This document shows, piece by piece, positions 2,310-20,000 of a DNA stretch of 20,000 bases; the first letter of the stretch is position 1; each line of letters starts with the position of its first letter. The stretch is from an uncultured virus (IMG/VR IMGVR_UViG_3300050505_000328) (lineage: Duplodnaviria > Heunggongvirae > Uroviricota > Caudoviricetes): the IMG/VR virus record IMGVR_UViG_3300050505_000328; one strand, 5' to 3'. The notes below the pieces were generated by a model. That model was not told the DNA's origin. It made no database searches and worked only from the letters and a program-made list of their open reading frames with translations. The position numbers were made by a program, and so were the translations under genes.

Positions 2310-2836
2310 CCAACAACATCGCCGAAGCCGACACCGAACCCCCGCCCGTCGTGCAGATGGTCGACCTCTGCAAGGAGCGCGACGTGGGCATCGTGACCGT
2401 GTGCGAGGGCCTGCAACCGCCGGGCGAGTGGGGATTCCAACACTTCCTCTGGCGCGTGACCCTGCTCTACAAGGGCCGCTCGTTGAAGACTGACTTCAAG
2501 TGCGGCGTCGCCCACGTGTACCCGCCAAAGAGCCCGCGCGGCGGTCACAAGCCCGACTGCACGAGCGACCACGTCTTCATGGGACGCGAGAACGGTACGA
2601 GACTCTGCGGACCCGGAAAACCCAAGCCGCCCGACGCGGCTGACGTGCTCTCGTGCCTGTGCTCGGACGCGACCAGTGCCGACCGCGTCACGTTCGAGGA
2701 CTGGTGCTCGGACCTCGGCTACGACACGGACAGTCGCAAGGCCGAGAAGATCTATCTCGCGTGCGTCGAGACGAACGCGAAGCTACACGCCTTCCTCGGC
2801 GAGGACTTCGACCTGTTCGCCGGAGCGGAGCACTGA
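2306..2836 (+). CDS. Phage hypothetical protein (FEDWCxxxGYDxDSRKA motif)
   Basis: ATGA overlap. The C-terminal motif resembles one I recall from uncharacterised phage early proteins. Confidence 0.8.
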   Translation: MTNNIAEADTEPPPVVQMVDLCKERDVGIVTVCEGLQPPGEWGFQHFLWRVTLLYKGRSLKTDFKCGVAHVYPPKSPRGGHKPDCTSDHVFMGRENGTRLCGPGKPKPPDAADVLSCLCSDATSADRVTFEDWCSDLGYDTDSRKAEKIYLACVETNAKLHAFLGEDFDLFAGAEH

Positions 2837-2872
2837 CAATCAGACAAGAACCCCAAACACAGGAGAACGGGG

Positions 2873-3331
2873 ATGAACAAGAGACAAGAACTGGAAGCGA
2901 GACTGAAGAAGGCCGATCGTGACCTGGCGGAAGCCGTCATGGTCGTCGCGCGCTGCGCCCAAGAGGTGAGCGACTGCGCCGACAACAAGCGACTCTGCGA
3001 CGCCTTCGCCGTCAACCCCGAGGAGATGGTCGAGCTCCGGAACGCCCTCACGCACTGGCAGGCGTGCACGCAGAAGTTCCTGAAAGTGGTCGACGAGGTC
3101 GGCGAGTTCAACCGCACAGCGCTCGGCACGGCCGTGCACGAGGTCGTGCTCGGTCGGCTCGAACCTCTGCCACTTACCGACAACCTGCACCTCCAAGCAG
3201 CGCGGCGCGCCTGGGCTGCAAACAACGCCGAGGCTGCCCATCACGATTACGGCGAAGTCTTCAACGACACGCTGCTGTCCTTCGACCGGGACCTCGTCGC
3301 GTTCGCCAAGAGCTACGGAGAGAACAAGTGA
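2873..3331 (+). CDS. Helical hypothetical protein
   Basis: AGGAG RBS upstream of the ATG; GTGA overlap with the helicase gene. Confidence 0.8.
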   Translation: MNKRQELEARLKKADRDLAEAVMVVARCAQEVSDCADNKRLCDAFAVNPEEMVELRNALTHWQACTQKFLKVVDEVGEFNRTALGTAVHEVVLGRLEPLPLTDNLHLQAARRAWAANNAEAAHHDYGEVFNDTLLSFDRDLVAFAKSYGENK

Positions 3332-4794
3332 CCCGAGTCTGGAGCGCCTACCAGCAGGCCGTCTTCGACGACGCCCGGAGCGGCGAGGGCCACACCGTGG
3401 TCGAGGCCGTACCCGGGAGCGGGAAGACGACCACGGGCACCGAGATGCTGCGCCACATCCCGAGCGGGCTGTCCGTGTGGATGGGCGCGTTCAACAAGGA
3501 GATCGCCGACGCCCTGCTCGGCCGCGTGCCCCCCGGCACCCGCACCAGCACGTTCCACAGCTTCGCGTTCGGCGCGACGACGCGCGCGCTCGGGCGCGTG
3601 AAGGTCGACCGCGACCGCATGTACCACGTGCTCGACGCCTACTTCGAATCGCGCGGGCTCGAGGTCTCGGGCGAGTGGGCGGGCGCGCTCTGCAAGGCCG
3701 TGAGCCTGGCCAAGGGCACGCTCGCGTGGACCGAGACGGACGTCGACCTCCTGCTCGACACCTACGGCATCGCGGTGCCGTACAAGACCAAGGAGGAGGA
3801 CACGAAACAACTCGAGCGCCAGCACTTCTGCGAGCAGGCGGCGAAACTTCTCCAGCTCGCCAAGGAGGTGAAGGGCGAGGTCGACTTCGACGACATGATC
3901 TGGTTGCCGGTCGCGCTCGACCTGCCGCTGCCGCGCTTCGACCGCGTCGTGGTCGACGAGACTCAGGACCTGAACCCCTGCCAGCTCGCGGTCATGGAGC
4001 GCGCGATCAAGCCGGGCGGGCGCATCACGGCCATCGGTGATCGCCGGCAGAGCATCTACGCCTTCCGCGGCGCGGACGCGCGGGCGATCGACAACATCAT
4101 CGAGAGGTTCAACGCGAAGGTCCTGCCGCTTTCGATCAGCTACCGCTGCCCGCGGCTCGTGGTCGAGCTCGCGAAGACGCTCGTCCCCCAGATCGAAGCC
4201 GCGCCGGGTGCACAGGACGGCGTCGTCGAGGACCGCGAGCCCGAGGAGATGTGGGACGAGCTCCGCTCGGGCGACTTCGTGATCAGCCGCGTGAACGCGC
4301 CGCTCGTGAGCCTGTGCTGGCGCCTGCTCTCCGCGGGCCGGCCCGCCCACATCCAGGGCCGGGACATCGGCACGAAGCTCGCGAGCTTCGTAGAGAAGAG
4401 CGACTGCAAGACCGTCGAGGAGTTCCGCGCGTACGTGGACAAGTGGCACGCGCACGAGTGCCGCCGGCTCACGAGCAAGAAACCTCCGCGCCCGACGGAC
4501 AACGTCGACGACCAGGCCGAGTGCCTGCTCGCGCTGAGCGAGGGCGTGAGAACGATCCGCGACCTGCTCGGCAAGATCGACAAGCTCTTCTCGGACCGCA
4601 AGGGCGAGCCGAAGATCATCCTGACGAGCACGCACAAGGCGAAGGGACTCGAGGCCGACCGCGTGTGGATGCTCGAGGACACGTACATGAAGCGCGACGG
4701 CGTCGAGGAGATCAACCTCAAGTACGTCGCGATTACAAGGAGCAAGCGCGAGCTGTACCTCGTGAATGGGTTCAACAAGTGGAGGCGGTCATGA
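3328..4794 (+). CDS. Superfamily 1 (UvrD/Rep-like) DNA helicase
   Basis: GTG start in a GTGA overlap after GGAG. Motifs: Q motif (YQQAVF), Walker A AVPGSGKTT, Walker B VVDETQD, motif III GDRRQSIYAFRGA, IV SYRCP, V STHKAKGLE, VI YVAITRSK. Confidence 0.93.
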   Translation: MTRVWSAYQQAVFDDARSGEGHTVVEAVPGSGKTTTGTEMLRHIPSGLSVWMGAFNKEIADALLGRVPPGTRTSTFHSFAFGATTRALGRVKVDRDRMYHVLDAYFESRGLEVSGEWAGALCKAVSLAKGTLAWTETDVDLLLDTYGIAVPYKTKEEDTKQLERQHFCEQAAKLLQLAKEVKGEVDFDDMIWLPVALDLPLPRFDRVVVDETQDLNPCQLAVMERAIKPGGRITAIGDRRQSIYAFRGADARAIDNIIERFNAKVLPLSISYRCPRLVVELAKTLVPQIEAAPGAQDGVVEDREPEEMWDELRSGDFVISRVNAPLVSLCWRLLSAGRPAHIQGRDIGTKLASFVEKSDCKTVEEFRAYVDKWHAHECRRLTSKKPPRPTDNVDDQAECLLALSEGVRTIRDLLGKIDKLFSDRKGEPKIILTSTHKAKGLEADRVWMLEDTYMKRDGVEEINLKYVAITRSKRELYLVNGFNKWRRS

Positions 4795-8742: not shown

Positions 8743-9203
8743 TGATCTTCGCCATCCTTCGTTGGCTCCGCTTCTGGCTCTGGTACAGGCCGCTCGCGCG
8801 CCTGCGACGCCAGAGTCTCTACGTCGACTGGAACCGCGGCGTCGACGACGCGCGCGGCACGCGCGAGGACCCGCTGCGCACGCTCGCTGAGCTGAACCGG
8901 CGCACGCGCGGGTTGGTCCTCCGCGGTGACCTCGTGGTCGAGCTCGACGGCGACTTCTCCGACGAGGACCTCGAGCTGAGCCTCACGACCGCGCGAGGTT
9001 CCATGCTGGTCGTGCGCGGCGGCAAGCCGATAGCTCGTCGCCTGTACATGACGAACGTGAAGACGTTCATGCGCCGGTACTTCAAGGGCGCCGTCTCGGC
9101 GCGCGACTACCCGAACCCGCCAGGTGCGGTGGGTGGCGTGCAAGTAGATGCGACGGTCGAGCGCGCCCGGTTCGAGGCGCTGAGGTTCGGGAGGAAAAAA
9201 TGA
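8742..9203 (+). CDS. Hypothetical protein with a DUF1565-like N-terminal motif
   Basis: TGATG overlap. YVDWNRGVDDARGTREDPLRTL resembles the YV...G.D...GT...P..TI cap motif of parallel beta-helix proteins. Confidence 0.6.
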   Translation: MIFAILRWLRFWLWYRPLARLRRQSLYVDWNRGVDDARGTREDPLRTLAELNRRTRGLVLRGDLVVELDGDFSDEDLELSLTTARGSMLVVRGGKPIARRLYMTNVKTFMRRYFKGAVSARDYPNPPGAVGGVQVDATVERARFEALRFGRKK

Positions 9204-10090
9204 GCTACTGCGACCACAGCGGTTGCCTGAACCGACCGTGCATGGTCTGCACGTGCCGGCGGTGCGACAGCGAACCCGAGAACGAGAAATTTTGGTCCTG
9301 CGCCGACCACGAGGATTCTGTCGCCGAAAGGCACCTACGCATCCGCGACCGAGCCGCAGAATTCAGGAGACTGCCCATGAACAAAGACAAGAACGCCTAC
9401 CGCACACCAGCCGACGAGCCCGAGCCCGAGTGGAAAGAGCTGACGACCTTCGAGGTCGAGGTCTCGAGCCTGGGCCAGAGCGACGGCGTCAAGATGTACG
9501 GACGAGTCAAGAGCATCACCAACTTCGAGCATTCCGTCGGCACGCACGACGAGAGAGCCAAGGCGACGCTGCGCCTCGGCCAGCGCGTGCGCGTGATCCT
9601 GCAGGTGCTGGCCGCGCTCGCCCTCGCGGGCTGCTCCAGCTCGAGTAAGAACGACGAACTGTTTGGGACAGGAGGAACGTATGGCGAAGCATCTGTGGGA
9701 GGCTCTGGAGGCGCTGCTGGTGCGGCTGGTGCTGGCACCGGCGGAGTGGCTGGTGCAGGCGCTGCAGGAGCTCCTGCGGGCGGCGGAGGGGCTGGGGTGG
9801 ACGCTGGCCCGGCCTGCACCGTGATCCAGGTCGTGGGCTCCGTCTACGCGAACAACTGCGGGACGCCGACACCGCTCAACGGCGTGGCCGGTGCCTGCGA
9901 CGGCGAGACCGACTGCACGTACGACTTCGCGTTCGCGGTCGACCCCGGCTTCGACCCCAAGCCCGGCTGCCCCAAGGACCTCACGGTGACGTACCTGTGC
10001 GTCGACGGGCTGGGCGAGACGCGCGGGAGCAAGAGCGCGTACACGCCGCCCGACGCGGCGACGACCAAGCTCGAGTGCGGGTGCTACTGA
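9200..10090 (+). CDS. Composite ORF: Cys-rich N-terminus, internal lipobox, Gly/Ala linker, C-terminal SUEL/Gal-lectin-like domain
   Basis: Internal VILQVLAALALAGC-SSSS; Gly/Ala-rich linker; I.V..S.Y..NC...V...CDG...C...DPKPGCPKDLTVTYLC. Alternative starts at ATG 9377 (AGGAG upstream) and GTG 9587. Confidence 0.65.
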   Translation: MSYCDHSGCLNRPCMVCTCRRCDSEPENEKFWSCADHEDSVAERHLRIRDRAAEFRRLPMNKDKNAYRTPADEPEPEWKELTTFEVEVSSLGQSDGVKMYGRVKSITNFEHSVGTHDERAKATLRLGQRVRVILQVLAALALAGCSSSSKNDELFGTGGTYGEASVGGSGGAAGAAGAGTGGVAGAGAAGAPAGGGGAGVDAGPACTVIQVVGSVYANNCGTPTPLNGVAGACDGETDCTYDFAFAVDPGFDPKPGCPKDLTVTYLCVDGLGETRGSKSAYTPPDAATTKLECGCY

Positions 10091-10329
10091 TGGCCAGCGA
10101 GGAAGTCGTCCCCGGCATCGCCGCGCTCAGGTGCTGGCTCGACGACAAGAAGATCAGCAAGCACCGCTTCGCGCTCGACATCGGCCAGGACCCGAGCGAG
10201 TTCGGCAAGCTCCTGAAGAAGGACGCCGCGCGCGTGTCGGTGGAGCTCGCGTTCAAGATCGAGCGCGCCACGGGCGGCGCGGTCCGAGCAGAGATGTTCG
10301 TGCCGGTGGAGAAAGTGAGCACAACATGA
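10090..10329 (+). CDS. Cro/YdaS-like helix-turn-helix regulator
   Basis: TGATG overlap. ISKHRFALDIGQDPSEFGKLL (HTH) followed by LAFKIERATGGAV. Confidence 0.8.
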   Translation: MASEEVVPGIAALRCWLDDKKISKHRFALDIGQDPSEFGKLLKKDAARVSVELAFKIERATGGAVRAEMFVPVEKVSTT

Positions 10330-10700
10330 GAGACCAATTCGTGAAGCTGGGCGACGCCGAGGTGCGGTTCGCCAAGGTCGTCGCGGTCGTCGCCGTCCCG
10401 GGCAGGGAGACGTCGGACGTCTACTTCGAGGGTGGCGACGCGCGCGTGGAGCTCTTGCCGGACGAAGTCTTCGCCAAGCTCGACGCGGCCGAGAAGCGCT
10501 ACCGACAGGAGCGCGTGATCCTCGACTTCGCATGCCGCGCTGAAACGGCGCGAGCGGAGCTCAGCGAGATTCACGCGAGTCGCGACTACGACCCCCTCCA
10601 TGGACTACTTGTGGCAGCCGAACGGGACCTCTCCCGCGCCGTGCGCGAGTACATGGGCTACGCAACCGAGCCGGCTAACGCGCCGAAGGGGGATCCATGA
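10326..10700 (+). CDS. Hypothetical protein
   Basis: ATGA overlaps at both ends; trimmed from ORF 10131..10700. Confidence 0.75.
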   Translation: MRDQFVKLGDAEVRFAKVVAVVAVPGRETSDVYFEGGDARVELLPDEVFAKLDAAEKRYRQERVILDFACRAETARAELSEIHASRDYDPLHGLLVAAERDLSRAVREYMGYATEPANAPKGDP

Positions 10701-10972
10701 ACTACCGCCTGCTAGCAGCCGTGGCCCTCTCCGCCTGCGCCTCGAGCCAGCCGCCTGAGGCGTGCCCCAAGTGCTACTCGATCGACGAGGTCGCGCCGTA
10801 CGAGCCGCCGCGGCGCATGATCATCCTCTGCGACCAGCCGGACGCGGCCGCGCCCGAGCCGGCCCCCGTCGAGGACGAGGACGCGGGCGAGTGCGGCGCG
10901 AGGTGCGTGCCGCTCGTCGAGCGCGAGTACCCGCCCCCGAAGTCCGACGACCCGTTCGCGCGCGTGTTCTGA
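10697..10972 (+). CDS. Small lipoprotein
   Basis: Signal peptide and lipobox MNYRLLAAVALSA-C; Pro/Cys-rich mature part; AAGGGGG upstream. Confidence 0.7.
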   Translation: MNYRLLAAVALSACASSQPPEACPKCYSIDEVAPYEPPRRMIILCDQPDAAAPEPAPVEDEDAGECGARCVPLVEREYPPPKSDDPFARVF

Positions 10973-11410
10973 GCGACGAACCTATCCAGTGCTCAACGAC
11001 AATCCTGACACCGACCCTTCCCCGGCGACGTACCTGGTCGTTCCGGATCAACACGACGTACCTATCTGAATCCCAACCGTCCTAAGCGACGGACCGCACC
11101 CGAAACGAGCCTGGGCGACAATCCGGATCACGCCAATCCTTTGCGACGATCCGCGCACCGGCGCGACATTCCGAACCCAGCCATCGCTTCGCGACCTACC
11201 TGCCAGTACCAGACCCGCGCGACACTCCGGCCCACCTCACGCCGGATCTTTCCGACGCGACAAGCCCTGACTGACTTCGCCAACGCGACGTACCGTACCG
11301 GACTTGGCCAACGCGACAACCCATGCCCCATCGAGCCCCTCCTCTGCGACGTACTGGCCCAGCTCACACCGCAAGTCTGCGCGACTAACCCATCCAAAAC
11401 GCTTCTAACC
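10973..11410. repeat. Upstream degenerate array: RCGAC anchor plus 5-nt NN-NCC modules (putative guide-RNA array)
   Basis: 15 RCGAC anchors end at 10977, 11000, 11029, 11057, 11090, 11119, 11147, 11167, 11195, 11223, 11261, 11289, 11317, 11350, 11385. Spacings are 23, 29, 28, 33, 29, 28, 20, 28, 28, 38, 28, 28, 33, 35 (10 of 14 are 5n+3). Example unit: gtacc-gtacc-ggact-tggcc-aacgc-gac. Confidence 0.9.
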
Positions 11411-11431
11411 CCAAAAAGAAAAGAGCAGAGC

Positions 11432-12145
11432 ATGAGCAAACTAGACGAGAGATTCGACCCGCGACGCCTGTACGACATCTACCGCGTCACGATCGCCGTA
11501 CGCGACCGCGTGTGCGGCGGCATGCCCAAGAACAAGGAGCTCATCAAGACGTGGGTCGAGTCGACGACCGGCTACGCCGACGAGAAGAGCGAGAAGCTCA
11601 CGCAGGAGAACGCCGAGCTCGTCGTGAACGAGGTCGCCGAGAAGTCGTGGATAGGCTTCCCCGAGGACAAGCAGGGCCTGTTCATCCCCGCGCGCAACGT
11701 CAAGGCCATGCTCAAGCAGTCGGCGTCCCTCCTCGGCGTCACCAAGAAGAAGCTCGGCAGCAAGCAGATCCTCGCCGAGGGCATGGAGGTGAAGGCGGTC
11801 AACGGCCACGACCGGATCTACCTCGGCAAGAAGACGATCGACGGGACGGACGAGAGCGCGATCCACGTCATGACCGCGCAGGGCCCGCGCACCGCGCTCC
11901 GGCGCATGGACTACGTGACGAAGCCGACGCTCACGTTCGAGATCTGGGTCCTCGGCACGGCCGCGCTGGAGAAGCGGCACGTCGGCGAGGCGGAGCTCGT
12001 CGAGATCCTCACGCACGCGCAGGAGAACGGTTGCGGCGCGTCCCGCTCGCAGGGCGAGGGCAAGTTCGACGTGGTCGAGTTCGAGAAGATCAGCACGGGC
12101 AAGGGCATCGCGACCGAGCCCGCGGCGAAGAAGGAGAAGGCGTAG
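11432..12145 (+). CDS. Stand-alone Cas7/Csm3-like RAMP protein (candidate Vipr-like effector), 237 aa
   Basis: N-terminal strand YRVTIAVRDRVCGG; LFIPARNVKAMLKQ (compare IPGSSLKGxxR); DYV..P.LTFEI; C-terminal Gly loop GCGASRSQGEGKFDV. ATG 11432 follows a purine-rich leader. Confidence 0.85.
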   Translation: MSKLDERFDPRRLYDIYRVTIAVRDRVCGGMPKNKELIKTWVESTTGYADEKSEKLTQENAELVVNEVAEKSWIGFPEDKQGLFIPARNVKAMLKQSASLLGVTKKKLGSKQILAEGMEVKAVNGHDRIYLGKKTIDGTDESAIHVMTAQGPRTALRRMDYVTKPTLTFEIWVLGTAALEKRHVGEAELVEILTHAQENGCGASRSQGEGKFDVVEFEKISTGKGIATEPAAKKEKA

Positions 12146-12537
12146 CGACGAACCAGGACAATCCCAGCCAATCCGTGCGACGTGCCATGTCGTTCCGCAC
12201 CCAACCACGCGACATGCCCCCACATGCCCGCCCAAGCCACGCCCTAGCCGACGCGACAATCCCAGACATTCCGAACCACGTCCTCGTCGACACGACAATC
12301 CCAGCCAACTCGTGCGACGTGCCTTTCAGCTCCAACCCGTGACCGCAGCGACGACACTGGCCACTGCTGCGCGCCGCGACTGACCTTACCATGCCGCCCC
12401 ATCGCGACAGACCCCGCCATGCCAAGATCCCGAACGCCCCATCGCGACGATCCGCACCCAAACTTCGCGACGTACCTTGCCACAACTATTCTCAGCGACA
12501 AGCCGGTACCGGCCGAGCCGAGCCAACGCGACCAACC
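12145..12537. repeat. Downstream degenerate array: RCGAC anchor plus 5-nt NN-NCC modules (putative guide-RNA array)
   Basis: 13 RCGAC anchors end at 12149, 12181, 12213, 12257, 12296, 12318, 12352, 12380, 12408, 12448, 12471, 12499, 12532. Spacings are 32, 32, 44, 39, 22, 34, 28, 28, 40, 23, 28, 33. Example unit: tgacc-ttacc-atgcc-gcccc-atcgc-gac. Confidence 0.9.
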
Positions 12538-12550
12538 AAGGAGACGACCG

Positions 12551-12940
12551 ATGGAAGAGACCGACGAGGACATGATCAAGGAGTGGGTGGCCGCCTGCGC
12601 CATCCACCTAGCCGACACGATCGAGCAACTGATCGTCGTGTCGTACGCGCACATCGAGGCGCTGCCCGAGGACGAGCAGGCGGAGTTCAAGCGCAGGCTC
12701 CTGAACGCGCTCGAGTGCAGGGTCCTCGACCTGGCGTCGCGCGTCACCGTGGCGATGCTCGCCGAGAACGGCGAAACGATCGGGGACGTGATCGGTCACT
12801 TCACCGACCACGCCGTGGCGGCCCACAACTTCCAGCTCCGCGAGATGAACCCGCTCAACCGGATCCTCAACTCGGTGTTCGAGCACGTCGAGCGCGTGGC
12901 CACGGACCGGGCCGCGAAGCGCCACAGCGAGGGGAACTGA
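12551..12940 (+). CDS. Helical hypothetical protein
   Basis: AAGGAG at 12538-12543 before ATG 12551; trimmed from ORF 12419..12940. Confidence 0.8.
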   Translation: MEETDEDMIKEWVAACAIHLADTIEQLIVVSYAHIEALPEDEQAEFKRRLLNALECRVLDLASRVTVAMLAENGETIGDVIGHFTDHAVAAHNFQLREMNPLNRILNSVFEHVERVATDRAAKRHSEGN

Positions 12941-12942
12941 CA

Positions 12943-13500
12943 ATGGCATTGCCCGAAAGAATCCAGACCGAGCAGGACGTCGAGGACGTCTACGAGCACT
13001 TCGAGGTCGAGGCGAACCGCTACGTGCAGATGCGCCTGGCTCGAGACGAGCTCAACGACTTTCAAGGAAGATTCTTCATCAGTCCTGGTGACCTGCGATT
13101 CGCCTCCGACGACGAGGTCCGCGAGCTCAAGCGGTACCTGAACGACGGTGATCGAGACATCTGGTTCGCGCGTGGAGCTCTAAACCAGGTCCAGAGCCTG
13201 GCGAAGATCGTCGGGCTGACGCGAGACAGTCTGGACCCGATCAAAAAGAGCCTCGTCATCAATGAGCACATCCGCTGCTCGCTGAGCGACCTCGTCCTCT
13301 CGCTGCGAATGTTCAAGCCTGCGGTCGAGGCCCTGACTCTGTGGCGCCGCAACCACAACGTGCTCGCGAAGGTGTTCGAGATCCACACCATGCAGTGGCT
13401 GCACGAGCCGAACGAGCAACTCGACGGGCAGAAACCGGAAGAGCTGCTGAACGACGACGCCGGACTGACTCGCCTCGAGTCCCTGCTGGGGATCCGATGA
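12943..13500 (+). CDS. Protein with C-terminal Xre/MbcA/ParS (DUF2384-type) antitoxin domain
   Basis: C-terminus VLAKVFE...QWLHEPNEQLDGQKPEELLNDDAGLTRLESLLG matches W-L-x-x-P-N-x-x-L-x-G-x-x-P-x-x-L-L...G; GAGGGG RBS. Confidence 0.7.
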   Translation: MALPERIQTEQDVEDVYEHFEVEANRYVQMRLARDELNDFQGRFFISPGDLRFASDDEVRELKRYLNDGDRDIWFARGALNQVQSLAKIVGLTRDSLDPIKKSLVINEHIRCSLSDLVLSLRMFKPAVEALTLWRRNHNVLAKVFEIHTMQWLHEPNEQLDGQKPEELLNDDAGLTRLESLLGIR

Positions 13501-13676
13501 TCCCCTGGAACGACATGGACGAGCGCGAGCGCGCGGTCTGGAGCGCGGCCTACGGAGCCGCGTTCATGACGTACCAATACGAGAGGGAAGAAGCTCAGTT
13601 GGAAGACTCGGTCGAGATGGCCGACCGAGCCGTGCACGCGCTGCGCGAGGCGACGAAGAAGGATCCGTATCGATGA
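13497..13676 (+). CDS. Small hypothetical protein
   Basis: ATGA overlaps at both ends. Confidence 0.65.
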   Translation: MIPWNDMDERERAVWSAAYGAAFMTYQYEREEAQLEDSVEMADRAVHALREATKKDPYR

Positions 13677-16289: not shown

Positions 16290-16500
16290 CCAACACCTGG
16301 CACCTGTTGGGGGGTGTTGGGTGTTGGGCAACGGAGGGGTTATTTTTCTAAAAATAATTCCGAAAACCTTCCGGAGTTATTTTTCAAAAAATAATTATCC
16401 CAACAGACCAACACCCACCAACACCCGGAGGTGTTTGGCAAAAAAAAATTCTAAGTAGTCGTAATCGTTGATGTCCCTTACATGACCAACACCCCAACAC
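16290..16500. other. Putative replication origin (iterons plus AT-rich palindromes)
   Basis: CCAACAS heptamers on + (16290, 16400, 16408, 16418, 16486, 16494) and - (16304, 16314, 16321). They flank two 21-nt AT-rich direct repeats (16339-16359, 16376-16396) upstream of the primase-helicase gene. Confidence 0.7.
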
Positions 16501-16764
16501 GTGATCTAAGTAAATAGAGGGGTAGAAGTGTAACGGAATGACCATTGGTATATGGCTTCGGTGGAAGATTTTTGAAGACGAGGCTGACAGATCGCGCGCG
16601 CCTGCGCGCATGTACCCGCGCGCGTACACGCGCGTACGCGAGGCGACCGTGGCACCCCGCACTGTCACGGTCGCGACTGCGACGAATGTGGTCTTGACGC
16701 CGACACCGGACTTCTGGCAAAAGCGAAGGTCCGTCGCCGTGAACCCGTAGTCCCGATCCCCAAG

Positions 16765-16798
16765 AAAAAAGCCCCTGGGCCGGGAGACCCAGGGGCTT
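16765..16798 (-). terminator. Rho-independent terminator-like hairpin, minus orientation
   Basis: 11-bp perfect stem AAGCCCCTGGG / CCCAGGGGCTT with an 8-nt loop and an A6 tract on the left (U tract on the minus strand). Confidence 0.55.
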
Positions 16799-16900
16799 GG
16801 AAAGTCGCGCAATGCCAGTGCGAGACCAATCCGACGAGTCGGAAGTTAGCCAAAATCGTGAGCGAGATCAACAACAAAAAGCCCATTCGCAAGGTGGGCG

Positions 16901-19660
16901 GTGAAGGTCTCCAACTTCGACCACGCGAAGGATAACGACCCGAAACAGGGCGATATCACTTGGGAATACTTCGCGGCCGAGCTCGGACCCCACGATTATC
17001 GCTACCAGGTCAAGAAATTCGTCCCCTGCTTCAGCCCGGCCGAGTTCGACCTCAGCGCCCCGAACGTCGTTCGCGACGACGCCTTCGTCGTCCGGCTCTG
17101 GATGTTCGTCCTCGACGTCGACGAGGTGAGCGAGCAGACGTACCTCGCGCTCGTCGCCTTCGTGCGCCAGCTCGGGCTGGCGGCCGTCGTGTACTCCACG
17201 TGGTCGCACGCGGAGTCGCTCGCCAAGACCGGCCTGTACAAGTTCCGGGTCGTCATCCCGCTCGACCAGCCGGTGGACGCGGCGCGCTGGCGCGAGTTCT
17301 GGGCTAAGGCGAATCACGGCCTCTTCGGGGGCGTCGGCGACCTCAAGTGCAAGAACGAGAGCCGGCTCTACTTCGGCCCCTTCGCCCCCGCCGGCACCGA
17401 GGCGGTGAACTTCTACTACGCGCTCCCCGGCAACGCGCTCGCGACCGAGTCCGTGTTCGCCCTGCCCCTGCCCGAGGGCGTGCGCGACACGCGGGCGACC
17501 GACGGCGAGGAGCGGAAGACCAAGGACAGCGAGGCCGTCGCCATGCTCGCCGCCGTGTGGCCGAGCCAGCGCCGGCACGAGGCGCACCTCGCGCTAGCGG
17601 GCGGACTGCTCTCAAGCGGCGTAACCGACGAGCGCGCGGTCGAGTTCCTGTGCGCGGTCGCGCGCCAGCACGACGGCAGCGAAGAGGAGCGCGACAAGCG
17701 CGAGAGCGCCGTGCAGCACACGCGCGACCAGCTCGACGCGAACGAGAAGATCACGGGCTGGACCACGCTCGCGGGCATCGTCGGCTACGACGTCGTCGAG
17801 AAGGTCCGCGCCCTCGTCGAGCGCGCCCCGGACATCTCACTCGAGCAGCTCACGCGCTACTCCAAGGAACTGAAGAAGAGCAAGTTCGACAACAAGCGCG
17901 AGCTGGGCGACGCGCTCGCGAAGGTCTGCGAGCGGCGCCCTTTCCCCGAGCCGCTCGCGCTGAAGCTCGCGGCGGAGCTCGGCACGCGGTACGTCGATTA
18001 CAACGCTAAGTCCATCGCGGCGCTCTTCGACGAGAGCCTGCGCGTCATGGTCGCCGATGGTGAGGACGTGACCGTCGAGCAGGTCGAGGCGCGCATCAAG
18101 CTGAAGCAGGACGAGGTCCGGCAGGAGCGCGACGAGCGGCGGAAGAAAGAACAGCGGCGCGAGCAGGAGGTCGAGCACGACAAGGCGAGCCGCATCCGCG
18201 AGTCGTTTAACAACGGCCGCTCGCACCCGTACACGGTCGAGGAGCTGCAGCGGTTCGCTCCGGTCATCAGCACGGGGCACCAGTGGATCCTGCAGAAGGA
18301 CCGCGCGTTCTACTTCTACCACTACGGCAAGCACCGCGGCCCGTACACGGAGGCGGAGGCGCACAACGCCGCGCTGCGCGAGCTGGCGCCGGCATCGAGC
18401 GCGGGCGTCGAGCTCTACAAGGTCACGAAGGACGGCGCCGAGTTCAAGAGCCTGCGCCAGCTCGTCGCCGAGTACGGCACCGTCGCCGACGAGCTCATCC
18501 TCGACATGCGCGCGCAGACCACGACGTACGACCCGAGCGTGCGGACGATCATCGAGGCGCCGTGCCCGCTCCGCCCGATCGCGCCGGTCTACCACGCCGA
18601 CATCGACGAGTGGCTCTACCACCTCGCGGGGCCGGAGTACTGGTACGACCTGAAGACGTGGCTCGCGATCCTGCCGCGGCTCGACATCGTGCGCGTCGCG
18701 CTCTTCCTGACCGGCAAGAAGAGCCTCGGCAAGAGCCTGCTCGCGCTCGGCTGCGCGCGGCTCTGGACGACGCGCGGGCCGACCTCGCTCGACGCCGCGT
18801 TCGGCCCGTTCAACGACATCGTCGCGAGCTGCCCGCTCTGCTTCGCTGACGAGCAACTACCGAAGGACTTCCGCGGCTACACGATGAACCCGCAGCTCCG
18901 CCACCACATCCAGGCGACCGAGCGCATGTACAAGCGGAAGTTCCTGCCGAACGGCAAGCTCATCGGCGTCACGCCGACGATCGTAGCCGCGCACGACCCG
19001 TCGATCCTGCGCACGCCCGAGGACCTCTCGAATAACGAGATCGAGGGCATCATGGAGCGCTACTTCCACATCGCGGTGCGCGACGCGGCGGGGGACTACC
19101 TGGCGTGGCTCCGCCCGACGACGTTCGAGCGCGGCTGGGTCGAGGGCGACAAGATCGCAGAGTTCGTGATGTGGCTGTACTACAACCACCGGCACGAGTC
19201 GCAGGGCCGCTTCTACATCAACCGCCCCGACGTCGAGAACACGCGCTGGCTCGCGACCTCGAGCGGGGCGCGCAGTGCGGTGCTGCGGTGGCTCTGCAGC
19301 TACCTCTCGGACCGCCGCAAGTTCGAGGGCGACCCGAACACCAAGATGTACGTGCGCGTTTATAAGGGCCAACTGCTCGTCAACATCTCTGGGCTCCTCG
19401 AATTCTGGGACAAGTACATCGGCAACGAGAAGTGCCCGCCCTCGGGGAAGCTCGCGCAGACCATCGGCGAACTCGCGTACCCGAAGCAGCGCATCCAGCT
19501 CCTGAACGGGAAAAGAATCCCGATGAACTACCGCGTGATCGTTCCCGACAACATCTACGCCTGGGCAAAGAACAGCGACCTGATCACGGAAGAGGAGATC
19601 GCGAAGCAGCTCTCCACTGATTCGATCGAAACCAACATTGGTCTCACGAAAACGGCTTGA
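16901..19660 (+). CDS. AEP-type primase fused to a PriCT-like region and a C-terminal SF3/D5-like helicase domain
   Basis: AEP-like motifs FVLDVD, YSTWSH, KFRVVIPL, DLKCKNESRLYF; helical RHEAHLALAGGLLSSG; Walker A-like LTGKKSLGKS and Walker B-like CFADE. Confidence 0.85.
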   Translation: MKVSNFDHAKDNDPKQGDITWEYFAAELGPHDYRYQVKKFVPCFSPAEFDLSAPNVVRDDAFVVRLWMFVLDVDEVSEQTYLALVAFVRQLGLAAVVYSTWSHAESLAKTGLYKFRVVIPLDQPVDAARWREFWAKANHGLFGGVGDLKCKNESRLYFGPFAPAGTEAVNFYYALPGNALATESVFALPLPEGVRDTRATDGEERKTKDSEAVAMLAAVWPSQRRHEAHLALAGGLLSSGVTDERAVEFLCAVARQHDGSEEERDKRESAVQHTRDQLDANEKITGWTTLAGIVGYDVVEKVRALVERAPDISLEQLTRYSKELKKSKFDNKRELGDALAKVCERRPFPEPLALKLAAELGTRYVDYNAKSIAALFDESLRVMVADGEDVTVEQVEARIKLKQDEVRQERDERRKKEQRREQEVEHDKASRIRESFNNGRSHPYTVEELQRFAPVISTGHQWILQKDRAFYFYHYGKHRGPYTEAEAHNAALRELAPASSAGVELYKVTKDGAEFKSLRQLVAEYGTVADELILDMRAQTTTYDPSVRTIIEAPCPLRPIAPVYHADIDEWLYHLAGPEYWYDLKTWLAILPRLDIVRVALFLTGKKSLGKSLLALGCARLWTTRGPTSLDAAFGPFNDIVASCPLCFADEQLPKDFRGYTMNPQLRHHIQATERMYKRKFLPNGKLIGVTPTIVAAHDPSILRTPEDLSNNEIEGIMERYFHIAVRDAAGDYLAWLRPTTFERGWVEGDKIAEFVMWLYYNHRHESQGRFYINRPDVENTRWLATSSGARSAVLRWLCSYLSDRRKFEGDPNTKMYVRVYKGQLLVNISGLLEFWDKYIGNEKCPPSGKLAQTIGELAYPKQRIQLLNGKRIPMNYRVIVPDNIYAWAKNSDLITEEEIAKQLSTDSIETNIGLTKTA

Positions 19661-19686
19661 CGCATTCGCTCGACAAAGTGTATACA
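19657..19686 (+). promoter_or_regulatory. Candidate sigma70-type promoter
   Basis: TTGACG (19657-19662), 18-nt spacer, TATACA (19681-19686), just upstream of ATG 19696 in an AT-richer patch. Confidence 0.35.
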
Positions 19687-19695
19687 GTTCGTTCG

Positions 19696-19872
19696 ATGGC
19701 AAAAAAGCTGGATCCGATGGTGAGATTGTCACCGAAACTCGTGAAACAGATAGATGCTCACGCGAAGTACTTGCGAGCTAAGACCGGGATGGTCGTGAGC
19801 CGGACCAGCGCAGTTCAGGCGCTGCTGACTGAAGTCCTCGAAGAAAAAAAGAACGGGAACAAGCGCGGATGA
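19696..19872 (+). CDS. Ribbon-helix-helix (CopG/Arc-like) DNA-binding protein
   Basis: MVRLSPKLVKQIDAHA...VSRTSAVQALLTEVL matches the RHH strand-helix-SR-helix pattern. Confidence 0.7.
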   Translation: MAKKLDPMVRLSPKLVKQIDAHAKYLRAKTGMVVSRTSAVQALLTEVLEEKKNGNKRG

Positions 19873-20000
19873 GCGCTCTCCTCCCCATCTACCCACCCAT
19901 CGACCCCGAGAAAGAACCTTGGATCTCCGCCACACAGATCTCGAACTACGAACTCTGCAACCGCAAGTGGGCCTGGCGGTGGCTGGAGCGGCAGTACGCG
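19869..20000 (+). CDS. N-terminus of a PD-(D/E)XK (RecB/Cas4-like) nuclease (partial)
   Basis: ATGA overlap. Translation MSALLPIYPPIDPEKEPWISATQISNYELCNRKWAWRWLE... fits the S.S.l..Y..C.RKW start of PDDEXK_1-type exonucleases; the ORF runs off the window. Confidence 0.6.
   Translation, partial: MSALLPIYPPIDPEKEPWISATQISNYELCNRKWAWRWLERQYA

Follow-up and report, generated by a model that had tools for sequence, protein, structure and literature searches.

What is the role of a single RAMP gene in a phage genome when non-coding arrays with a period of five nucleotides lie on both of its sides? Such a gene was noticed in a 20,000-nt stretch of DNA, here called the window, from the uncultured virus IMGVR_UViG_3300050505_000328. 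The initial annotation of the window proposed an RNA-guided system other than CRISPR that resembles the VIPR systems of phages. Here, we describe the gene and its arrays, compare them with those of homologues and of VIPR, and discuss how the arrays may be read.

The RAMP gene, its genome and its arrays

The virus record is 97.1 kb long with the same ORFs repeated at its ends, and the virus itself measures ~93 kb. It encodes an integrase, a DNA polymerase, a thymidylate synthase, and an endolysin and is, as judged from its sequence, a temperate phage. The RAMP gene had been described as solo, with neither cas genes nor a repeat-spacer CRISPR, and this description held in the ORFs and the region scanned. 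No cas family was found in 15 ORFs searched with Pfam and 49 searched with PHROGs, of about 133 candidate ORFs, and a CRISPR array was rejected because positions 10500-13200 contain no long direct repeats. The PF03787 model gave no match in the one genome searched (0/1), and it misses the present RAMP too.

The gene (11432..12145, + strand) encodes a protein of 237 aa with a predicted Cas7/Csm3-like fold, based on an AF2 model, its structural matches, and a family profile. The model has a pLDDT of 88.5 and is structurally closest to Csm3, Cmr, and type VII Cas7; the 31 top-ranking matches are all CRISPR proteins. Csm3 aligns over 163 residues (Z 12.9, rmsd 3.9 Å), and type VII Cas7 is matched by Foldseek with an E of 6e-8, so that the RAMP fold suspected from the letters is supported by the predicted structure. 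In sequence, the protein is without a match to a named family in Pfam, PHROGs, NCBIfam, PDB, or ESM Atlas. A profile search nevertheless assembles a family of 1561 cluster representatives (50% identity) at E≤1e-3. The RAMP motifs include a thumb around H145-R158 and a G-loop at N199-F212, with the family consensus GxGA[DS]RSQGxGKF. The G-loop weakly resembles that of Csm4 (22 of 105 members match, best E 5e-5).

Two genes on the same strand adjoin the putative system: an ORF of 91 aa (10697..10972, +) without a Pfam match, whose stop codon abuts the first anchor, and an ORF of 129 aa (12551..12940, +) without a Pfam match over the cut-off. Two genes downstream of the RAMP, an ORF of 185 aa (window 12943-13500) carries an Xre/MbcA/ParS antitoxin C-terminal domain (E 2e-6). 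A 296-aa ORF at 9200-10090 combines a Gly/Ala-rich linker with a Cys-rich end, a style that recalls myxobacterial lipoproteins and that we take as a weak hint at the host. Further along, a 919-aa primase-helicase gene is flanked by stretches of lower GC (16300-16900 and 19660-20000) without long + strand ORFs, which are possible promoter or origin regions. Elsewhere, a phage gene cluster of sugar-nucleotide epimerases, glycosyltransferases, and a methyltransferase (G000 C1, about 52800-60500, L127) perhaps serves DNA or capsid modification.

The two flanks of the RAMP gene contain 30 listed RCGAC motifs. When the motif at 12544, which lies between the RBS and the next ATG and beyond the range of the initial annotation, and one of the overlapping pair 12348/12351 are set aside, 28 anchors remain, 15 upstream (10973-11381) and 13 downstream (12145-12528). 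If 12348 is the one retained, these are 25 GCGAC and 3 ACGAC. NNNCC follows directly after 26 of the 28, whereas 2000 mononucleotide shuffles average 0.59 such cases and never exceed 5; the count first given is thus confirmed. The period of five is likewise upheld: the lag-5 autocorrelation has a z of 3.5 in the upstream and 4.2 in the downstream flank, none of 500 dinucleotide shuffles is as high, and two coding controls show period 3 alone in the same test. Chance or a coding artefact as the source of the arrays is ruled out by these shuffles and coding controls.

The upstream array (10973..11420, placed on the + strand from its operon context) consists of 15 RCGAC anchors and units of 20-38 nt built from NNN-YC pentamers. 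Its first base is the base right after the stop codon of the ORF at 10697-10972, and its 3' end enters the A-rich leader of the RAMP gene. The downstream array (12145..12537, +) has 13 anchors and units of 22-44 nt; its first anchor overlaps the RAMP stop codon, and it ends with a bare anchor and one pentamer (12528-12537) directly ahead of the next RBS. At the DNA level, the units thus span 20-44 nt and the register shifts at every anchor. A length of 8+5n nt is found in 14 of the 26 complete units, and the 59 pentamers of these 14 have entropies of 1.92, 1.98, 1.87, 1.17, and 0.41 bits at positions 1-5. The fixed part of the pentamer is therefore the dinucleotide YC at positions 4-5, and positions 1-3 all vary. 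The conserved triplet with a variable NN that had been proposed does not stand, since its third base is nearly free (1.87 bits). No sigma-70 promoter was found in 9900-13600, and the one terminator-like site in this region is under the shuffle mean.

Arrays and code in two clades of homologues

Period-5 flanks, which the initial annotation expected beside homologues, are indeed present there: a two-strand scan of 123 homologous loci detected 134 arrays in 90 of them, and in 134/134 the CC lies on the strand of the gene. We refer to these loci as the CC clade. The array starts at most 30 nt from a + strand stop codon in 53 of the 134, and several arrays overlap the stop, such that TGA-C forms the first anchor. 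In loci compared by eye, the neighbour genes are unlike one another. Of 121 loci passed through a unit parser, 71 yielded anchored units, 703 of which are unique; 474 of the 703 are sized 8+5n nt. The units can be written as GAC + (NNN-YC)n, where GAC is the common anchor core. Non-first pentamers of the family have entropies of 1.97, 1.99, 1.94, 1.09, and 0.20 bits at positions 1-5, the low values at positions 4-5 being partly built in because the parser demands C-rich ends. Known RNAs and ribozymes, looked at to fix the strand of the arrays, gave 0 Rfam matches in 20 sources.

Several loci depart from this pattern. In a CC array of L055, the units at about 2587-2665 are turned round as a block, so that GG pentamers and GTC anchors appear on the + strand. 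L104 (3840-4180) has a CC-type array with the anchor TTGCAAC in place of NCGAC. In L096 (4055-4260), a sigma-70-like promoter and then a self-complementary, probably structured RNA lie just upstream of the CC array. Three anchored CC units at about 15611 in L137 (G002), ~35 kb from the RAMP gene, are possibly an orphan array, or chance. The sole homologue record (30%) among 50,697 GenBank phages is the cultured Microcystis phage Mae-JY09 (PP395641.1, L121), with a CC array at 2465-3600.

Pentamers that end in G were first seen in two loci of 30% identity. They belong to a sister clade whose profile matches that of the CC clade at HH 100% and that of canonical Vipr at 0.4%. Of 47 loci of this clade, 42 carry YG arrays with NCGAG anchors, without exception on the strand of the gene, and 275 of 382 units are sized 8+5n nt. 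The NNN-YG pentamers have entropies of 1.99, 2.00, 1.81, 1.04, and 0.16 bits at positions 1-5. The anchor and the pentamer end in the same base within each clade, C in the CC clade and G in the YG clade. The G-loop of the sister clade has an invariant H and E at the positions of CC-clade N199 and D/S204; N199 itself is present in 75 of 104 CC-clade members in one alignment and is invariant in another. At the level of sequence, this comparison shows that the repeat code switches together with the protein (G-loop) between the clades. Because there are only two clades, the switch is one evolutionary event and not a statistical covariation.

Relation to VIPR and to CRISPR RAMPs

Canonical vrRNAs of VIPR string together 9-16 YNNGG repeats and end in a structured tail; the NN bases pair with the target and one target base is skipped at the wobble position (10.64898/2026.04.26.720920). 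The alternative repeats NNNGG, YNNNG, and NNNNG are named in the Methods of the same work. In addition, GAC/NN, CAC/NN, WGT/NN, and TGH/NN are reported in 21 clusters beside Vipr-like folds (10.64898/2026.10.21.760802).

As far as the accessible portions of the sources go (10.64898/2026.04.26.720920, 10.64898/2026.04.26.720927, 10.64898/2026.10.15.759431), the closest system is VIPR type II of Escherichia phage SUSP1. Common to both are a phage-borne solo RAMP and flanking non-coding period-5 arrays, without cas1/2 or a nuclease; a 3-nt target step, a wobble base at a loose position, and targets on other phages are probably shared as well. In contrast, the repeat here is a fixed YC (or YG) with three variable bases rather than GGY/NN. 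The units, known here as arrays at the DNA level, would give short anchored RNAs of 8+5n nt, whereas VIPR RNAs are ~100 nt long, hold 9-16 repeats, and carry a structured tail at the 3' end. There are also 28 units here, compared with 4 in VIPR type II. When loci were compared by eye, no conserved vap accessory gene was identified beside the present RAMP.

The SUSP1 gene was taken as vipr because its H17, K33, E71, R138, D177, W178, and R179 fit, by eye, the residues named in 10.64898/2026.04.26.720927. The G-reading residues D177 and W178 of this protein fall opposite A203 and S/D204 of the present RAMP, in an alignment that is weak (HH 4.7%). The present family shows no profile link to SUSP1 (HH 4.7%) or to one canonical family (3.7%), whereas that canonical family matches SUSP1 at 97.4%. 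The GG repeats of SUSP1 lie on the vipr gene's own strand, and so do 239 of the 243 GG runs in the canonical family (80 loci), with 1.38 bits at the Y position. The resemblance to VIPR suggested in the initial annotation is thus retained in that VIPR is the closest system, but the GGY/NN motif fails on the strand of the gene and the G-reading residues are missing. Since three defining features of the characterised VIPR systems are not seen here (the motif on the gene's strand, the architecture of the RNA as read from the DNA, and the G-reading residues), the locus is not filed as a VIPR member. In our judgement, the present system works like VIPR but is not a canonical member, and its RAMP family appears separate from the characterised Vipr proteins.

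The non-canonical VIPR-like clusters of 10.64898/2026.10.21.760802 and the NNNGG, YNNNG, and NNNNG repeats likewise combine period-5 arrays, other fixed bases, and Vipr-like folds. The clusters are modelled as three fixed and two free bases, and the available text describes no anchor, 8+5n rule, C-coded strand, motif-residue covariation, or targets; this is a comparison of text only and the two sets may overlap. The TGH/NN or CAC/NN class outlined there could be the YG sister clade. The reverse complement of CC arrays reads NNNGG, and CC-clade loci may fall in the published NNNGG or CAC/NN classes on the opposite strand. In openly accessible literature text, we found no description of anchored 8+5n units or of a C-coded strand.

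With the RAMPs of class 1 CRISPR systems (Csm3/Csm4, Cmr, type VII Cas7, Csf2), the present protein shares the fold (Z 11-13) and a weakly Csm4-like G-loop, and the locus shares a multi-unit array with a short constant anchor. It differs from them in having no repeat-spacer array, no other cas genes found, a step of 5 nt instead of 6 nt, and an interrupted guide.

Targets, proposed mechanism and alternatives

In the main target search, 647 units (438 CC units of at least 33 nt and 209 YG units of at least 38 nt) were compared with masked phage DNA under 4 rules in 2 sets; hits as good as the two best, given below, are expected by chance about 0.07-0.11 times per rule and set. The observed matches equal the null almost everywhere, and the exceptions lie in the YG clade. 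For example, L241:4044, read as contiguous triplets, matches a DPPY-motif gene at 22 of 24 bases (per-guide E 1.1e-4, ~0.07 over all guides). It decodes to the antisense of a VTDPPYG motif, and an N6/N4 methyltransferase is encoded by a local gene that carries this motif. It has 59 exact 21-nt matches in viral contigs, of which 2 extend to 24/24, and the 25 commonest translations of its matches are all VTDPPYG. A second unit, L258:3972, matches 19 of 20 bases in the second set (2.1 Mb) under the rule 'positions 1-2 + one skip' (E 1.7e-4); the guide and a gene for an HTH + IrrE peptidase both encode RLRFTLAHE (peptide E 2.6e-5).

Peptide-level matches of YG units at E<1e-3 number 4 in the two frames in which position 3 is the wobble base and 0 in the other four, and shuffled guides (five per guide, in the two wobble frames) give 0.0 matches. 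The other YG candidates are a capsid gene (L231 1234-2142) and an AAA_24 gene (L258 95-910), both in the guide's own locus, and a gene of a related locus. The L231 and L258 units decode to peptides nearly identical to those of the capsid and AAA_24 genes, respectively, but differ from these genes in wobble bases; they are possibly aimed at close relatives, or at self. Over the five candidates, mismatches at positions 1, 2, and 3 number 4, 4, and 19 of 43, a count favoured at the wobble by the choice of three of the five at the peptide level. For the step along the target, which the initial annotation had framed as a gapped code, these candidates support 3 nt and indicate that the triplets of the sister clade derive from targets and that their third base falls on the codon wobble.

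For the CC clade, window units included, no target rose above the null in the virus's own genome, in loci, proviruses, or whole phage records, or at the peptide level. Self-targeting by 27 window units under 12 rules equalled the null in their own genome. Cross-targeting in loci was null for the first 120 of 237 units and, among 220 C and 209 G units, for the first 170 of each; 76 units under 9 rules likewise gave nothing above the null. A search of 98 genomes gave 0/98, and collection scans with three decoded patterns of 18 specified bases each gave 1, 0, and 0 matches, the one of which did not extend and was judged chance. The best window candidate, unit 11053 with 16/18 to L355 (per-guide E 0.006), is within the null and was rejected.

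The CC triplets correlate most closely with codon usage in the sense frame (rho 0.72 versus 0.05-0.47), and stratified shuffles give z values of 3.9 for a step of 3 nt, -2.3 for 4 nt, and 0.5 for 5 nt; a 4-nt step, also without excess matches, is disfavoured. Dependence across the CC is seen at all three positions (slopes 0.24, 0.73, and 0.97), with one negative and four null among nine predicted pairs. The junction test, which uses stratified shuffles since unstratified ones overstate the signal, gave none on its positive control, the canonical GGY arrays (N5 given N4', lag-2 slope -0.51, z -1.0, 1203 junctions), and the step and junction signals of CC arrays are therefore only suggestive. 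Mismatches between orthologous units (29/18/27/42/7 of 199) single out no free position among 1-3. Under the skip rule, a unit of 28 nt holds 10 paired bases and short CC units 10-12, which gives little specificity. This is the strongest ground for suspecting that the CC clade does read position 3.

Taken together, we consider it probable that the locus encodes a VIPR-like RNA-guided system of a temperate phage, with a separate RAMP family, and that it acts as follows. The arrays would be transcribed in sense within the operon, as their context suggests; the + strand also folds less than its complement (-21 to -24 versus -40 kcal/mol per 100 nt). The RNA may then be cut at the GAC anchors to yield short guides. 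By analogy with VIPR structures, one RAMP protomer would cover each pentamer and grip the fixed YC. Each pentamer would span three target bases, of which those facing positions 1-2 pair and the one facing position 3, at the codon wobble, is skipped or loosely read, as is indicated for the YG clade and presumed for the CC clade. The resulting filament would repress competing phages or prophages by binding their DNA, repression by binding being proposed because no nuclease lies nearby.

Targets, once decoded, are neutral with regard to the strand, since both strand readings give 'three bases, then NN'. A system of the same kind could make its RNA from the opposite strand as (GG-NNN)n ending in GTC, which is an NNNGG repeat; the sister clade would then be a CAC/NN class and the locus an already-counted divergent VIPR. 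We regard this as possible, if on balance unlikely. Repeats that would accommodate it are published (NNNGG, YNNNG, and NNNNG in 10.64898/2026.04.26.720920; GAC/NN, CAC/NN, WGT/NN, and TGH/NN in 10.64898/2026.10.21.760802), canonical units of L229 end in GG-NN-GTC on their sense strand much like the antisense reading, and L074 and L083 show, by eye, a hairpin and a T-run between gene and array on the + strand. However, GG lies on the vipr strand in 239/243 canonical runs and in SUSP1. CC arrays lie between co-directional genes, 53/134 of them starting within 30 nt of a + strand stop, so that opposite-strand RNA would need its own promoter for every array, inside unrelated genes. Moreover, the base that would serve as Y is almost unconstrained (1.94 bits, compared with 1.38 in canonical runs), the equivalents of D177/W178 are A and D/S, and, as the motifs end in C in one clade and in G in the other, either choice of RNA strand leaves one clade with an invariant C.

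All three variable bases may pair, so that each unit reads a contiguous target of 12-24 nt with the CC looped out, a code unlike the one-base skip of VIPR; we hold this to be doubtful. In its favour, all three positions have near-maximal entropy, dependence across the CC includes position 3 (slopes for p3 given p1' of 0.41 in the core clade and 0.55, z 3.4, in the sister clade; p3 given p2' 0.97), some contiguous matches of L241:4044 are perfect, and the shorter CC units (median 33 nt versus 43 nt) would need the extra base for specificity. Yet 19 of 27 mismatches in the five sister-clade candidates fall at position 3, the junction test is without signal on its positive control, the thumb insertion of known RAMPs displaces a target base (10.64898/2026.04.26.720927), and no contiguous CC-clade target was found. 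A further reading, which we think unlikely, is an independent, second lineage of solo viral RAMPs with C-coded sense guides. Here a long array would be cut wherever the constant anchor occurs, each of the many short guides would keep a handle of the 8-nt type, and all three variable bases would pair contiguously. The empty CC-clade searches would also suit array RNAs that carry no target information and act as scaffolds or decoys for the RAMP, for example by titrating host Cas or the Vipr of another phage. This we consider very improbable, as hypervariable triplets keep a strict register over hundreds of units and units of the sister clade can be decoded into motifs conserved in coding sequence.

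When VIPR was described in 2026, CRISPR RAMPs were suggested to descend from it, and a single code had been tested. The present family shows that the code is switchable together with the protein, and it has a CRISPR-like addition that is missing from tested VIPRs, namely an array of multiple guides in which a constant anchor separates the units. If the preferred VIPR-like mechanism is true, it would offer guides of ~30 nt and two orthogonal protein-RNA pairs for programmable repression, as well as a direct test of a gapped code relaxing toward contiguous pairing. If instead the second-lineage reading is true, the family, with its Csm4-like G-loop, would represent a surviving link between VIPR and CRISPR arrays, and the YC and YG clades would form a natural pair of orthogonal guide codes, with two residues of the G-loop as the switch.

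Both types occur together on the contig L039 (14-1455 and 2580-3700): a canonical GG-type VIPR with vipr, a vap-like gene, and GG arrays is followed ~1.2 kb downstream by a CC-type RAMP that has arrays of its own. This suggests that GG and CC codes can coexist without cross-talk. L206 (3130-5549) and L229 (3090-5558) contain canonical GG arrays of more than 2 kb with a one-base register shift per unit; they probably correspond to the 'staggered arrays' described with the discovery of VIPR (10.64898/2026.04.26.720920).
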